Below, piece by piece: positions 5,943-10,540 of a stretch of 64,000 nt of DNA (position 1 is the stretch's first letter; every line of letters begins with the position of its first letter). The stretch is taken from the NCBI GenBank assembly GCA_041744215.1, contig JBGTLG010000006.1, positions 96,001 through 160,000 of the forward strand. Direction: 5' to 3'. Position numbers and translations under genes: made by a program. The notes beneath the pieces are model-generated. The model did not search any database. It worked only from the letters and a program-made list of their open reading frames with translations, and was not told the origin of the DNA. The stretch is from Fimbriimonadales bacterium. Its GTDB lineage: Bacteria; Armatimonadota; Fimbriimonadia; Fimbriimonadales; ATM1.

Positions 5943-6227
5943 ATGGTAAGAGATGGCAACAGTGTCGCCCGACGGCGCCCGGCAGGAGGCTCAGCTTTGC
6001 CTAAGCTGATCGGTTTGCTTTGCGCCTTGATTTCGTTGGCGGCCTCCGTGCTCGGTCAAGTCGAGCCCGGAACCGCGCTCCTGAGAGCCGGGATCGCCTT
6101 CATCGCCGGGTCCCTTCTGACACAGGCTTGGTACGTTTTCATCGCGACACGCGTCACTACCGTCGATCAGCTGCCGCATTTAACCGACGATTCCGCGTCG
6201 GAAGATGAGGAGAGGAAAGCAGCATAG
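5943..6227 (+). CDS. small two-TM membrane protein
   Basis: Two hydrophobic segments and an acidic tail; directly upstream of fliA. Confidence 0.6.
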   Translation: MVRDGNSVARRRPAGGSALPKLIGLLCALISLAASVLGQVEPGTALLRAGIAFIAGSLLTQAWYVFIATRVTTVDQLPHLTDDSASEDEERKAA

Positions 6228-6243
6228 GAGAGAGGAACAGCGT

Positions 6244-7029
6244 ATGGCCCATCTTGATAAGCAACGTCTCGCCGCGCTCTGGGAACAATTCAAGGTGCAG
6301 GGGAACCAGGAAGCGCGCGCGGAGATCATTCAGAACTTCGCGCACTTAGTAAAGATCACCGCTGGGAGGGTGGTCGGTACCGTCCCGGCTGGAATGGATC
6401 GGGACGACCTCGCAAGCGCCGGCACCATTGGCCTGCTCAAGGCCGTCGATCAGTTTGATCCAGGCCGCGAGGTGAAATTTGAGACTTATGCCATCGCATT
6501 GATTCGGGGCGCGATTCTCGAGATGTTGCGGAGCGAAGATTGGGTGCCCCGCTCAGTCCGAGAAAAATTGAAGGCATTCGAGCGCACCCTGACGTCGCTG
6601 GAGGGGCAGGCCGGACGTCCCCCGACCGAAGCGGAAATCGCCGCGGCGATGGGGATATCGGAGGAAGATCTCCGCGAGATCATGCAGCAAGCTGGGCGTA
6701 CCGGCGTACTATCTCTGGAGGGCGCTACCTCAGGCGGCGAAGGCGAAGAACACTCTCACTTCATCGATCTTCTGGTAGACGAGAATGCATCCCCCGAAGC
6801 CGAGGCGGAAGGCCGCGAACTGCGACGCATCCTCAGTTCGGGCGTGGATCGGCTGCCGGACCGCGAAAGGCTCGTTGTCGCGCTCTACTACTATGAAGGG
6901 CTCACTTTCAAGGAGATTGGTCAAGTTCTGAGCGTCTCCGAAAGCCGAGTCTATCAACTCCACACACAAGCGATGACCCGAATTCGAACCCATATGCAAG
7001 CCCAGGGAGGCATTTACGCTGCCTATTAG
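6244..7029 (+). CDS. fliA: FliA/WhiG family RNA polymerase sigma factor (sigma28)
   Basis: DDLASAGTIGLLKAVDQFDP, FETYA..IRGAI, DWVPRSVR and LTFKEIGQVLSVSESRVYQLH motifs; SD AGGAGAGAGG. Confidence 0.92.
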   Translation: MAHLDKQRLAALWEQFKVQGNQEARAEIIQNFAHLVKITAGRVVGTVPAGMDRDDLASAGTIGLLKAVDQFDPGREVKFETYAIALIRGAILEMLRSEDWVPRSVREKLKAFERTLTSLEGQAGRPPTEAEIAAAMGISEEDLREIMQQAGRTGVLSLEGATSGGEGEEHSHFIDLLVDENASPEAEAEGRELRRILSSGVDRLPDRERLVVALYYYEGLTFKEIGQVLSVSESRVYQLHTQAMTRIRTHMQAQGGIYAAY

Positions 7030-7044
7030 GCAAGGAGGGTGCCC

Positions 7045-7275
7045 ATGCCCTTTGGCCCAGACATTGAACGAATCAGCCCCTATCACAGCATCAACCCGAG
7101 GGTAAACGCTGCCGACTCCCAGCAGGAGAGGAAGGGCAAGCGCGACCGGAAGCAATCCCCGGACGAGCCCGAAGACGTCTTGGACCTTCATGAGGAAGAA
7201 GAAGGCGATGCGGCGGGTCAGGACGACGTGAAGGTGTACGGAGCCGAGGACGACCATTTAGATCTGTCCGCGTAA
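7045..7275 (+). CDS. small acidic hypothetical protein ending HLDLSA
   Basis: SD AAGGAGG; follows fliA closely. Confidence 0.6.
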   Translation: MPFGPDIERISPYHSINPRVNAADSQQERKGKRDRKQSPDEPEDVLDLHEEEEGDAAGQDDVKVYGAEDDHLDLSA

Positions 7276-7282
7276 CTCCGCC

Positions 7283-7298
7283 TTGGCATGCTTCTTGC
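7283..7298 (+). promoter_or_regulatory. putative sigma54 -24/-12 promoter
   Basis: TTGGCATGCTTCTTGC: GG 7285-86 and GC 7297-98 with exactly 10 nt between. Confidence 0.6.
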
Positions 7299-7395
7299 GA
7301 CCCATCTTCACTGAGCGGCGGGACGCAGCCCCGCAAGTCGGCGTCATAACGTGGGGGGTATCCTCAGCCCCGAATTCCAACGGAGATTTATCAAA

Positions 7396-8493
7396 TTGAT
7401 CAACCTGAATCGATTCATTCCTGCAGTTATCTGTGCGGCGGCCACCGCCGCGATGGCTGGATGTGGCGGCGCAAAGGCGAGCGGCAGCTCGTCAATCGCG
7501 ACCTTCAACGAAGCCCCAATTTCTCGCGAAGACTACAACAAGCGCCTCGAGACGATGCAAGTCGTTCGCGTTGTTGATGGTAACGGAAACGTAGTTCAGG
7601 CGCGGGTTGCAGAGCCGATGAGCAGCCAAGCGCTTCAGATGCTGATGATTGAGCAGGCCATCATTCAGGCCGCGCGAGACGAGAAGGTCTTGCCCTCGTC
7701 AGACGACATCGAGAAGGAGCGTAAATTCCGCGAAGAGCTGCAACAAGGCTACGTCAACGAATTGAAAAAGATGGGCCTGAGCATGGCGGACATCGATCGG
7801 CAAATCATGCTGGAACTGGCTCAGGAGAGGTTGACGACACGAGGCGTTCCCGAGAAGACGATGGACGATGTCGACAAGTACATCACCGACAACCCCAACA
7901 TCACTCGAGTCCCCGCTACGGCGACATTCAGAGTCATAGTTGTCGAATCCGCAGCCGAGCAGCAGGCAGTTGATGCGGATCTCCGCGGAGGGCTGCCCTT
8001 CGGTTCTGTCGCTTCGATGCGGAGCAAAATGCCGAACGCAAGGATGAACAATGGTTCTTTCCCCGACAACTCTGCTCAGCCGAGACCCATGGCAGTCCAA
8101 GGCCTGCGGCCCGAAATGCAAAAGGCACTAAACGAAACCGCCGAAGGGAAGATCAGCGAGTGGGTCGTCGTTGACCAGCAGCGGATAAAGATCTTTGTCG
8201 AGGCGAAGGCACCGGAAACCAAGACCACCCTTAGCAACGCACAGAAGGAAAGATTGCGCCGCGAGCTGATGGCGCGAGAAGGCCAAGTCCAGAACGACGT
8301 TCAAAAGCTCATCGTCGAAAAACTCTCCAAGGCGGACGTAAAGGTGAACATCAACTACCTTCGCCAAGCGTGGGAGACTTTCCAGACGGCAGTGAAGGAG
8401 AGATCTGCGGATATCCTCGGCACTCCAAGCTCTGAGACTCCGACCCCCGCGCCTGCGACTGGCGGACCTGCTGCAGAGCCGTCGGACGAGTAG
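7396..8493 (+). CDS. PrsA/SurA-like foldase lipoprotein
   Basis: Lipobox MAGC, SurA-N-like helical region and parvulin-like region (FGSVA..S, EGKISEWV); TTG start after GGAG. Confidence 0.75.
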   Translation: MINLNRFIPAVICAAATAAMAGCGGAKASGSSSIATFNEAPISREDYNKRLETMQVVRVVDGNGNVVQARVAEPMSSQALQMLMIEQAIIQAARDEKVLPSSDDIEKERKFREELQQGYVNELKKMGLSMADIDRQIMLELAQERLTTRGVPEKTMDDVDKYITDNPNITRVPATATFRVIVVESAAEQQAVDADLRGGLPFGSVASMRSKMPNARMNNGSFPDNSAQPRPMAVQGLRPEMQKALNETAEGKISEWVVVDQQRIKIFVEAKAPETKTTLSNAQKERLRRELMAREGQVQNDVQKLIVEKLSKADVKVNINYLRQAWETFQTAVKERSADILGTPSSETPTPAPATGGPAAEPSDE

Positions 8494-8515
8494 ATAACAC
8501 CGGATATCGATTGAA

Positions 8516-8551
8516 GAGCCCCGGGTGGACGCCGCCCGGGGCTCGGTTCTT
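8516..8551 (+). terminator. GC-rich hairpin, probable terminator
   Basis: GAGCCCCGGGTGG-ACG-CCGCCCGGGGCTC followed by GGTTCTT. Confidence 0.6.
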
Positions 8552-8560
8552 GGGCGAGCC

Positions 8561-8588
8561 GGGAACTTTCGGTGTGCCTGCCATGTTG
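8561..8588 (+). promoter_or_regulatory. putative ECF promoter GGGAAC-N18-GTTG
   Basis: GGGAAC 8561-66 and GTTG 8585-88; same layout repeated at 8706. Confidence 0.6.
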
Positions 8589-8594
8589 GAATAG

Positions 8595-8683
8595 TCGGAA
8601 TAAGCAGGAAAGCTCGCTTTTTCAACGCATCCTCTCCTCAACGCTCCGGCCGGAATTCTCCTCTCGGCCGGAGCGATTTTTTT
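8595..8683 (+). ncRNA. candidate anti-SD sRNA 1
   Basis: CATCCTCTCCTCAA, then stem CGCTCCGGCCG/CGGCCGGAGCG with a CU-rich loop and a T7 tract; 5' end approximate. Confidence 0.6.
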
Positions 8684-8705
8684 CCTACTGACCAAAAGTC
8701 CCGGA

Positions 8706-8733
8706 GGGAACCACTTTCCCCGGCCGACTGTTG
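8706..8733 (+). promoter_or_regulatory. putative ECF promoter GGGAAC-N18-GTTG
   Basis: GGGAAC 8706-11 and GTTG 8730-33, followed by AATAG as in copy 1. Confidence 0.6.
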
Positions 8734-8739
8734 AATAGG

Positions 8740-8860
8740 CTGTCAGCGGAGCAACGGGAAGGGAAATATAAGTAACAGTTTTCATCCTCATCCTCCTCTC
8801 CTCCAATAACTCCGGCGCCTTACTCCTCCCTCTCCTCTCAGGCGCCGGAGTCCTTTCTTT
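8740..8860 (+). ncRNA. candidate anti-SD sRNA 2 (paralog of sRNA 1)
   Basis: CATCCTCATCCTCCTCTCCTCCAA, stem ACTCCGGCGCCT/AGGCGCCGGAGT, loop TACTCCTCCCTCTCCTCTC and TTTCTTT tail; 5' end approximate. Confidence 0.6.
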
Positions 8861-8913
8861 GGTTTAGTCTGCCCGAAGGATTCGGCATGCGACGCGTCGA
8901 AAGCATTCAAGTT

Positions 8914-10053
8914 ATGAATGACTTTGCGTCGGCTTCTTCGCTCTCAAACCTCATGCTTCGCCGCCAGGGCCGCACTCGTCGGGTTTCCAGTTGGGATCAA
9001 ACCGGGGGCAACCACGACTGGGTTAAGTTTGAGCCTCGCGAAAGCAAGGTCCTTGCAGAAGTGGAAGGCGCAGGAGTGATTCGGCACATATGGTTTACGA
9101 TTAACCATCGCGACAGGATGTACCTTCGCAACATGGTTTTGAAGGCGTACTGGGACGGCAGCGATGATCCAAGCATTTTATCGCCGGTCGGAGACTTCTT
9201 CTGTCTTGGGCACGGCATCAACAACAGCTTTGAAAATGCTGCGTTTAACGCTGTGGCGCATCAGGATTTGCATGGCGAAGTTGGAGGAGGCGTTGCCCTA
9301 AACTGCTACTTCCAAATGCCATTTGCACAAGGAATGCGAATCGAGATTGAGAACGAAAGCGACGAACTTTGCGATTCCTTCTACTACTATGTCGACTACG
9401 ATGAACTGCCGTCGCTTGGAGATGAGGTTCTGCGATTTCACGCGCACTATCGTCAAGAGTTTCCGACAACCGTCGACGGTGGCACTCTCGCATCGAAGGG
9501 TGAACATTATTGGGACAAGATGGCAGAACCTAACATCACAGGTGATGGCAACTACCTGATCATGGAAACACAAGGCGCAGGGCACTTCGCCGGTTGCGTC
9601 CTTTCGGTGGAGAACATCGACCCGATGATGCCGAAACGCGCGTTTGGCGATGTCGAGATGGTTGTTCCGGAACTGACTTGGTGGGGGGAAGGCGATGACA
9701 TGATTTGGATCGACGACGATACGTGGCCGCCAAGTCTGCATGGCACAGGTAGCGAGGACTACTTGACCCACGCATGGGGAATGCACGAAGATGCATGTCT
9801 CTACGGAGGCACAACCATTCATGAACATAGCAAGAAACACCCGAATCGAAAGGCATGTACGAGCTATCGACTGCATGTGCTCGACCCCATCCTCTTTGAG
9901 AAGAGAATAAAGGTCGCGATTGAGCACGGCCACGCGAACTTGCAGCAGAACAACTATTCCTCGGTCGCGTATTGGTATCAAACACCGGTCTCAGCGAGGC
10001 TGCCTGAGCTGCCAAAAGCCGAAGATCGGATACCTCTTTTTTATCGGAAGTGA
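8914..10053 (+). CDS. DUF2961 / glycoside hydrolase family 172 protein
   Basis: SSWDQTGGNHD, GAGVIRHIWFT, WWGEGDD, HGTGSEDY and SSVAYWYQ motifs. Confidence 0.85.
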   Translation: MNDFASASSLSNLMLRRQGRTRRVSSWDQTGGNHDWVKFEPRESKVLAEVEGAGVIRHIWFTINHRDRMYLRNMVLKAYWDGSDDPSILSPVGDFFCLGHGINNSFENAAFNAVAHQDLHGEVGGGVALNCYFQMPFAQGMRIEIENESDELCDSFYYYVDYDELPSLGDEVLRFHAHYRQEFPTTVDGGTLASKGEHYWDKMAEPNITGDGNYLIMETQGAGHFAGCVLSVENIDPMMPKRAFGDVEMVVPELTWWGEGDDMIWIDDDTWPPSLHGTGSEDYLTHAWGMHEDACLYGGTTIHEHSKKHPNRKACTSYRLHVLDPILFEKRIKVAIEHGHANLQQNNYSSVAYWYQTPVSARLPELPKAEDRIPLFYRK

Positions 10054-10138
10054 TGCATCGCCCGCCTGCCCTGCGGCGGCCGACTGCTGACCAGTTCGGA
10101 ATGCGTTGGGACACCGGAGTAAGTCAAACTCGTTCCCG

Positions 10139-10540
10139 ATGACAGCTCCGCGACGCGAACTGATCGTTTTATTCGATGGCGAATGCAACTTGTGCAATCG
10201 CAGTGTGCAGTTCATCATTCGCCGAGATCGCCGGGGAAGGTTTAAGTTTGCGCCGTTACAATGGGCGATAGCAAAACAGCTGACCGAACGCACAGAAAGC
10301 GCTGGCTCGATGCTGCTCATCGAGAACGGGAAAACTCATAGAGAATCGACCGCCGCGCTTCGCATCTGTAAGAACTTGCGATTTCCGTGGCCGATCCTCT
10401 CTGCGCTCATTGTCATACCTCGTCCCATTCGAGACTTCGCGTATCGTTGGATCGCGCGAAATCGATATCGCTGGTTTGGAAAGAGAGAAGCGTGCATGGT
10501 TCCGACCGAGGAACTCTCCGCACGCTTCCTCTCCGAGTGA
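10139..10540 (+). CDS. DCC family thiol-disulfide oxidoreductase (DUF393)
   Basis: FDGECNLC and AYRWIARNRYRWFG motifs. Confidence 0.9.
   Translation: MTAPRRELIVLFDGECNLCNRSVQFIIRRDRRGRFKFAPLQWAIAKQLTERTESAGSMLLIENGKTHRESTAALRICKNLRFPWPILSALIVIPRPIRDFAYRWIARNRYRWFGKREACMVPTEELSARFLSE

Follow-up and report, generated by a model that had tools for sequence, protein, structure and literature searches.

Introduction

In Alphaproteobacteria, the CcsR1-4 (cuckoo) RNAs are tandem sibling small RNAs (sRNAs) transcribed from a stress-sigma promoter, and their CU-rich, anti-Shine-Dalgarno-like loop motifs are described as pairing with Shine-Dalgarno (SD) regions to block initiation; such a motif-bearing RNA can also be the 3′ untranslated region (3′UTR) of an mRNA (PMC8034643). 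Here we report a locus of similar design from a Fimbriimonadales (Armatimonadota) metagenome-assembled genome (MAG), G000, in which two plus-strand units lie in tandem between a foldase gene and a DUF2961 gene. The locus belongs to a 64-kb stretch of DNA (G000:C6:96001-160000), here called the window, whose own numbering is used below unless a contig is named. An earlier note on this DNA had proposed that the units are paralogous sRNA genes behind promoters for extracytoplasmic function (ECF) sigma factors, and our analysis indicates that they are very likely ECF-dependent sibling sRNAs.

The units differ from CcsR in several respects. CcsR RNAs are described as having two hairpins with CCUCCUCCC in each loop (PMC8034643), whereas each unit here has one unpaired tract and one loop; the unit motifs are CCUCUCCUC and CUCCUCCCUCUCCUC, with UCUCCUC as their core in place of the CcsR core CCUCCUCCC. 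As described, CcsR is a single RpoHI/HII-dependent transcript cut by RNase E and lies next to a DUF1127 gene (the CIN1 context), whereas here each copy has its own ECF-type promoter (GGAAC-N18-GTT), and no DUF1127 gene was found in the 93.2%-complete genome. The phylum differs too, Armatimonadota here against Alphaproteobacteria for CcsR. A search of the window with Rfam at gathering thresholds returned a tRNA elsewhere and no match at the units. At permissive thresholds, the best match was that of the CcsR1 model (RF02791) to unit 2 (8778-8856), with E 0.099 and 20.3 bits where gathering requires 65.3; just three further matches, weak and unrelated, appeared in 7000-10500 at E <= 10, and the CcsR model gave no match at E <= 1 in the loci of eight relatives. 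Membership of the CcsR/cuckoo family was rejected because the score is below gathering, the DUF1127 gene is missing, and the motif layout and promoter are different. The Rfam/Infernal search suggested in the earlier note therefore assigns the units to no known family.

The enterobacterial sigmaE system offers a second comparison: an ECF sigma with a membrane anti-sigma drives the sRNAs MicA, RybB and MicL beside protective genes, and these sRNAs are said to form the response's repressing arm (PMC4102768). A sigmaE-sRNA arm has also been reported in Fusobacterium (PMC9546586). In contrast to the units described here, which are unrelated in sequence, MicA, RybB and MicL use their 5′ ends as seeds aimed at particular porin and lipoprotein mRNAs and have no generic anti-SD tract. 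To our knowledge, none of the three has its gene within the sigma operon's own 3′UTR.

Actinobacterial SigH/SigR and SigE resemble the present system in promoter form, gGGAAC-N18-(t/c)GTTGAA, and in that two related ECF sigmas share one promoter class; as in the SigH/SigE regulons, the candidate targets here include an HtpX-type protease and a thiol-redox gene (PMC10012870). Unlike SigH and SigE, the sigmas found here score below the curated cut-offs, and the putative anti-sigma, a membrane protein of 242 aa, matches zf-HC2 at borderline level. We know of no CU-seed sRNA family in the actinobacterial SigH/SigE regulons. Elsewhere, CpxQ is a stress sRNA that comes from the cpxP 3′UTR, and LhrC, RsaE/RoxS and 6C are multicopy sRNAs with C/U-rich seeds, in loops or unpaired tracts, that target SD regions. 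The present family recalls CpxQ in that the 3′ end of a stress-system mRNA would double as an sRNA, and LhrC, RsaE/RoxS and 6C in its C/U-rich seeds, with no sequence relation by Rfam. In contrast to all of these, the module described here alternates between a 3′UTR and stand-alone genes that copy the operon's promoter.

The kind of regulator, stress-sigma-dependent sibling sRNAs with C/U-rich seeds, is already known; the family and the lineage are new, and the alternation of one module between 3′UTR and satellite gene is a neat rather than a radical twist. Our literature search found no regulatory RNA described for Armatimonadota and no sRNA for Fimbriimonas, in line with the earlier note, and no relevant work joining ECF sigma factors, sRNAs and anti-Shine-Dalgarno sequences. 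We also know of no described ECF regulon of Armatimonadota, the literature on regulons not having been searched.

Two units with ECF-type promoter motifs and CU tracts

The two-unit array spans 8561-8866 on the plus strand, inside an intergenic gap of 393 bp (8494-8886) that had previously been put at 420 bp. Each unit reads GGGAAC-N18-GTTG(G)AATAG, CU tract, GC hairpin and U-rich tail, and all four elements were found where the earlier note had placed them. The UCUCCUC heptamer is the core of all four tracts, two of them unpaired and two in loops.

In unit 1, the promoter-like motif GGGAAC-N18-GTTGGAATAG (8561-8594, +; GGGAAC at 8561-8566, GTTGGAATAG at 8585-8594) precedes a predicted sRNA of ~90 nt (8596-8686, +), whose 5′ end is placed from the -10 position. 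Its CU tract, CAUCCUCUCCUC (8628-8639, +; repeat family D1), is unpaired in both the minimum free energy (MFE) and the centroid fold. The terminator hairpin that follows (8642-8675, +; inverted repeat I3) has an 11-bp, 100% complementary stem (8642-8652 / 8665-8675) that closes a 12-nt loop containing UCUCCUC, GAAUUCUCCUCU (8653-8664, +), and the U-rich tail (8676-8685, +) includes seven consecutive T at 8677-8683. The predicted fold of -32.4 kcal/mol is well below that of shuffled sequences (z = -3.76).

Unit 2 follows the same plan. Behind GGGAAC-N18-GTTGAATAG (8706-8738, +; GGGAAC at 8706-8711, GTTGAATAG at 8730-8738), a predicted sRNA of ~125 nt (8740-8866, +; 5′ end likewise predicted) carries the CU tract CAUCCUCAUCCUCCUCUCCUCC (8783-8804, +), 16 nt of which are identical in the same-genus relative G001 and in the 3′UTR of an ECF sigma gene of G003. 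The terminator hairpin (8809-8851, +; inverted repeat I2) has a 12-bp, 100% complementary stem (8809-8820 / 8840-8851); a CU-rich loop of 19 nt, UACUCCUCCCUCUCCUCUC (+), lies between stem arms 8820 and 8840, and the tail is CCUUUCUUUGGUUU (8852-8865, +). The fold energy is -36.9 kcal/mol (z = -2.69 against shuffled sequences). The promoters are not identical, as had been supposed: the -35 elements are the same, whereas one -10 element has a G inserted relative to the other, and nothing is shared between the spacers. A simple promoter and terminator scanner, which models sigma-70 promoters and loops of 3-8 nt (here 12 and 19 nt), reported nothing in 8200-9200.

Judged from sequence, the units have the features of genes for trans-acting sRNAs, namely their own promoter motif, an intrinsic terminator, an intergenic site and conserved non-coding sequence. 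The 5′ part of unit 2 (AUAGGCUGUCAGCGGAGCAACGGGAAGGG, 8735-8763) also resembles a 5′UTR in another family of the order (L010, G026 C5:38285-38316). The gene there is lexA-like by its first residues and has a C-rich run just before its SD; with E 0.04, this weak match could be due to chance.

The design is conserved across Fimbriimonadales

When the gap was compared by BLAST with 60 relatives, the only match was in G001 (76% identity), weaker matches being read by eye. G001 keeps both units 5′ of its DUF2961 gene, with GGAAC, TGTTGAAT, the CU tracts and the hairpins conserved; its counterpart of motif 1 reads GGAAC-N18-GTTGAAT, and the 18-nt spacers and the 5′ parts have diverged. Conserved hexamers, tracts and hairpins combined with diverged spacers are the pattern expected of a promoter and a functional RNA.

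Since remote copies lie beyond the reach of similarity searches, we searched for the design pattern instead. GGAAC-N18-GTT-N35-65-TCTCCTC occurred in 62/228 genomes of the order, with 77 matches compared with ~30 in the reversed control (table counted by hand). After one duplicate was merged, and with two matches not fetched, 74 distinct matches were examined. A hairpin and a T-rich tail directly followed the tract in 24/74 by script (G062 being doubtful), and G006 and G028 were added by eye. Passing copies came from seven genomes of the window's family, mostly with two loci each, and from ~11 genomes of a neighbouring family, in which the RNAs bear an additional 5′ hairpin; the G028 copy has two CU loops. 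In the relatives' copies, U runs mostly stand at the end, on the same strand as the motif. With a stricter GTTGAA pattern, 6/401 genomes sampled from the phylum gave a match (5/6 among the 54 of this order in the sample), compared with 0 in the reversed control. A further search with the 16-mer CATCCTCCTCTCCTCC, allowing 2 mismatches, led to the copies of genus g4 and to the G003 3′UTR; its matches are largely confounded, as many are the reverse complement of the SD and ATG of an opposite-strand gene. Three groups of modules were distinguished: a tandem type, a 'AACCCUCCAUAAGCCCCUCUCCUCC' type and a 3′UTR type. The design is therefore kept in G001 and across Fimbriimonadales, the conservation on which the original proposal depended.

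A covariance model without promoter columns recovers the promoter link

A MAFFT alignment of both unit types misregisters the stems; therefore, a covariance model (R1) was built from ten 3′UTR modules plus unit 1 of G000 and of G001 (67 positions, 6 pairs). R1 describes the seed and terminator and has no promoter columns. On the 64-kb window (both strands, filters off), it found unit 1 (8613-8686, 45.2 bits), a training member, and the untrained unit 2 (8777-8863, 23.4 bits, E 0.00048), which was the only other significant match. That a model trained without unit 2 recovers unit 2 speaks against chance. The comparative tests support the proposed paralogy of the two units.

At E <= 0.01, R1 gave 30 matches in 19/20 family genomes, 12 of them training members and 18 not, thus supplying the covariance model across related genomes that had been called for. 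Upstream of 17/18 non-training matches, at 47-86 nt, we found GGAAC-N18/19-GT[TC], compared with 0/18 in the reverse complement, 0/18 in the next upstream window and 0/18 downstream; the pattern is a widened one, as discussed below. The remaining match is the 3′UTR of an ECF sigma gene, and 11/18 of the non-training matches had never been chosen on a promoter. With the design pattern and R1 combined, 15/20 family genomes have a stand-alone copy (G006 by eye; G011 is unpublished). The unpublished G011 contributes one pattern match, two R1 matches and one row to each sigma count given below. These comparative tests agree with the prediction of discrete plus-strand sRNA-type genes.

The promoter motif precedes two conserved ECF sigma operons

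G000 has 21 sigma-70-family genes above the Pfam cut-off, and two ECF genes carry the motif. The first lies in an operon on contig C32 (C32:101375-100087, -), whose two products are a sigma of 186 aa and a one-pass membrane protein of 242 aa, which has a borderline match to zf-HC2 and is taken here as the putative anti-sigma; GGAAC-N18-GTTGCAC stands ~60 nt before the sigma start. Among C32-type orthologues of the window's family, GGAA[CT]-N17/18-GTT was found upstream in 14/18 (1/18 in the reverse-complement control), and in the neighbouring family in 17/30, compared with 0/30 in the control, mostly near -60 and in many cases with GTTGAAC. The second is a gene on contig C33 (C33:148702-149313, +) for a 204-aa sigma without an adjacent anti-sigma, and it has GGAAC-N18-GTTGACA upstream. 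Its orthologues carry the motif in 21/30 cases (controls 2/30, 0/30 and 0/30). In another genome of the set, G007, three tandem copies of the C33-type gene occur (C2:93400-95575).

The seed module is also found at these operons. UCUCCUC occurs <=60 nt after the anti-sigma stop codon in 12/18 family genomes (13/18 by a looser pattern), compared with 0/30 for the looser pattern in the neighbouring family. In the sequences inspected, a GC hairpin comes next and a U run mostly follows. The unpaired region of unit 1 resembles the 3′UTR of the C32 operon, with ~18/23 positions matching when read by eye. Downstream of the C33-type sigma gene, UCUCCUC and a hairpin are present in G002, G003 and G006. 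At a different locus (L315, G159 C1), a heptamer repeat run (AGCTATC, then AGAGATC) directly follows the anti-sigma stop codon.

In NCBIfam, the C32 sigma scored 156.6 against SigH_actino (TIGR02947; cut-off 251.55) and 146.1 against SigE (PRK09647; cut-off 265), and the C33 sigma 146.7 against SigE (cut-off 265). The published Corynebacterium promoters read gGGAAta / t/cGTTgaa for sigmaH and GGAAC-N17-19-(c)GTT for sigmaE/H, and the two regulons are described as overlapping (PMC10012870). Given these best matches and the published consensus, the initial assignment of the promoter type holds, the type being here the actinobacterial SigH/SigE kind, and the same motif stands before two conserved ECF operons. 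Because the sRNA promoter motif is also the motif upstream of the sigma genes, the units have the upstream signature expected of members of the same regulon, and this ties them to ECF sigma factors more firmly than the earlier note could see.

The exact motif GGAAC-N18-GTTGAAT occurs at 3 sites in the 2.68-Mb genome, compared with ~0.3 expected by chance (our estimate). The exact motif is also found in front of two protein genes, one for an M48 (HtpX-like) peptidase and one for a metallophosphoesterase, and a GGAATC-N18-GTTGTAT variant precedes a VKOR-thioredoxin gene; all three are candidate regulon members.

Complementarity of the seed to Shine-Dalgarno sequences

UCUCCUC is the complement of GAGGAGA, and the 3′ end of the host 16S rRNA is canonical (...GAUCACCUCCUUU). 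The seed is therefore complementary to the SD consensus in a host with a canonical anti-SD, as would be expected of an anti-SD sRNA. A motif search just upstream of candidate starts of open reading frames (ORFs) of >=70 codons listed 259 purine-rich, GGAG-type 7-mers. Outside the locus, the longest start-proximal match to the unit 2 loop was 13 nt of perfect complementarity (UGAGGAGAGGGAG) at G000 C4:23763 (-), at or just within the start of a gene for a primary-like sigma factor.

Proposed mechanism and its weighing

The conservation, the coupling of module to promoter and the motif before ECF operons together make ECF-dependent sRNAs very likely, and we are highly confident that the units are real ECF-type sRNA genes. 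In the mechanism that we propose, the membrane anti-sigma would release the ECF sigma, which would transcribe its own operon, with the seed module at the operon's 3′ end, together with protective genes (candidates are the M48/HtpX-like protease and the VKOR-thioredoxin protein) and the satellite sRNA genes. The two seeds of each RNA would then base-pair with SD regions (GAGGAGA) of target mRNAs and block 30S binding, perhaps assisted by Hfq, for which the genome has a gene. The sRNAs would thereby form the repressing arm of the stress response. As a whole, this mechanism of ECF-driven sRNAs that repress translation through GGAG-type ribosome-binding sites seems to us probable, with considerable room for doubt.

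Several points weigh against it. The sRNA transcripts are predictions from sequence and comparison, and the anti-SD repression is proposed from seed complementarity and analogy. A complementarity scan (>=10 nt) returned 244 sites with no clear target class, and strong GGAG-type SDs are so frequent that the seed alone predicts little. The 17/18 coupling uses a pattern widened post hoc to N19 and GTC, whereas the pre-fixed GGAA[CT]-N17/18-GTT gives 8/18 against 0/18. Stem covariation is typical of any intrinsic terminator, and R1 models just 6 pairs. Both sigmas fall under the curated NCBIfam cut-offs, though their best matches are SigH_actino and SigE, and since the motif precedes two different ECF operons, either sigma may be the cognate one. 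The U tails are poor in certain relatives' copies (G001 unit 1 and G006). Finally, the end of unit 2 and the start codon of DUF2961 are just ~20 nt apart, which would allow a role in cis.

Alternative explanations

The alternative that survives best accepts the units as real ECF-dependent sRNAs and gives their CU tracts other partners: an RNA-binding protein that they would bind or titrate, or G-rich sites in coding regions or 5′UTRs with which they would pair. The target scans gave no specific SD target, as this reading would have it, and two seeds per RNA with several copies per genome would also fit a sponge; in Rhodobacter, the small protein CcaF1 is described as binding CcsR RNAs (PMC8034643). 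Nevertheless, the invariant core complements GAGGAGA, a strong SD, in a host whose anti-SD is canonical, the nearby genes encode no CU-binding partner, and the search of the 93%-complete genome for a DUF1127 gene was negative. We therefore regard a target other than SD regions as unlikely.

A second alternative is that the units are tandem cis attenuators that govern ECF-dependent read-through into DUF2961, the CU tracts serving termination control. Both units are co-oriented with, and directly 5′ of, the DUF2961 gene in G000 and G001, the distance from unit 2 to that gene is short, as noted above, and several relatives' copies stop 30-45 nt before a co-oriented ORF. In other genera, however, the module precedes unrelated genes, and it is also found at the 3′ ends of ECF operons, a position that offers nothing to attenuate. 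The DUF2961 orthologues of 11 other MAGs have nothing similar to the units in their upstream regions, and the perfect, GC-rich stems of 11-12 bp leave no evident alternative antiterminator fold. Attenuation in cis is in our view rather improbable.

Because csrA is present in the genome, a GGA-rich RNA from the minus strand merited examination. Such a product could be a CsrA-sequestering RNA, the loops reading GAGAGGAGA on that strand, or a small protein started from GGAGGAGAGGAGG-ATG, since an ORF (8806..8351) has an SD-like run before it and keeps its frame over ~50 codons between G000 and G001. The promoter motifs, and the U tails where present, are on the plus (CU) strand in G000 and in the family, whereas CsrB/RsmZ-type RNAs would have promoter and terminator on the GGA strand, and no A-run precedes the hairpins to give a minus-strand terminator. 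The ORF was rejected as a gene: it encodes 146 aa in G000 compared with 57 aa in G001, the residues that it conserves come from the -10 box and hairpin read in reverse, conservation of the DNA is highest outside it (at 8783-8851), and unit 1 yields just a 2-codon ORF in G000. A minus-strand product is accordingly very improbable. That the units are ordinary terminators which by chance lie behind pyrimidine-rich DNA is hardly credible: a CU tract does lie between stop codon and terminator in other genes (G000 C17:1102 (+), C15:19931 (+) and C20:31731 (-)), but the elements are conserved across genera, the module is coupled to the promoter in 17/18 cases against 0/18 in controls, and R1 finds just the two units in 64 kb.

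The module may be used in more 3′UTRs than those of the ECF operons. One of the three genes just listed ends, as read by eye, in a PEP-CTERM-like tail.

Genomic setting and further candidates

G000 is an uncultured organism's genome in 42 contigs. DNA of the stretch 7900-9700 occurs in four DNA runs of one hot-spring study, labelled hot springs metagenome. The upstream neighbour of the units (7351-8493, +) encodes a SurA-N/PPIase (peptidyl-prolyl isomerase)-type foldase with Pfam domains SurA_N_3 and Rotamase_2. Its terminator-like hairpin (8516-8544, +; inverted repeat I1, 13-nt arms, 92% complementary) sets it apart from unit 1. The downstream neighbour (8887-10053, +) matches Pfam DUF2961 (3.5e-73), the family that had earlier been called GH172, and could receive read-through from both sRNA promoters. 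Two genes 5′ of the sRNAs lies a FliA/WhiG-type sigma-28 gene (6205-7029, +), which is unrelated to the GGAAC-N18-GTT motif.

Two further CU-seed candidates were noted in G000. In the first (L333, C22:75330-75700, +), CAUCCCUCCUCAC is followed by a hairpin, GCCCCGGCGC...GCGCCGGGGC, whose C/U-rich loop measures 23 nt; G001 (83% over 213 nt), G002 and G003 keep this candidate. GGAAC-N18-GTTTACC lies ~190 nt upstream of it, and a sigma-70-like TTGACA-N17-TACATT is nearer. In the second (L332, C27:5650-6000, -), CCCUCUCCUCC is followed by a hairpin of 13 bp that has one mismatch and the loop CUCCCCUCC; GGAAC-N17-CGTC precedes the candidate, and 56 nt are kept at 86% in G001. The sRNA copy of G077 has a cobalamin riboswitch close by (L199 701-846, -; 34.6 bits, which exceeds the gathering score).

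Implications

These results describe a predicted sRNA family across Fimbriimonadales and assign a promoter motif to two conserved ECF sigma operons, with a first candidate regulon made up of the HtpX-like protease, the VKOR-thioredoxin protein, the metallophosphoesterase and the sRNAs. The pattern and R1 can be used to annotate such RNAs in metagenome-assembled genomes. The family also suggests an evolutionary route, in which one seed-terminator module forms the sigma operon's 3′UTR in some genomes and, in others, stands alone as a gene that has the operon's promoter.

A more far-reaching reading, to which we give only a small chance, is that anti-Shine-Dalgarno mimicry would be hard-wired into the response of an ECF stress sigma across the order, as a global brake on strongly SD-led mRNAs: every firing of the sigma would yield RNAs that bear the sequence with which the ribosome itself reads SDs. 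If this were true, the bulk RNAs from the sigma-operon 3′ end and from the promoter-copying satellite genes, with two seeds in each RNA and several genes in each genome, would be less gene-specific regulators than a global brake, and translation under stress would shift to weak-SD or leaderless messages. On the reading that we favour, of ECF-dependent sibling sRNAs, the rule that envelope and stress sigmas recruit small RNAs as their repressing arm would gain in this locus a case remote from Proteobacteria.

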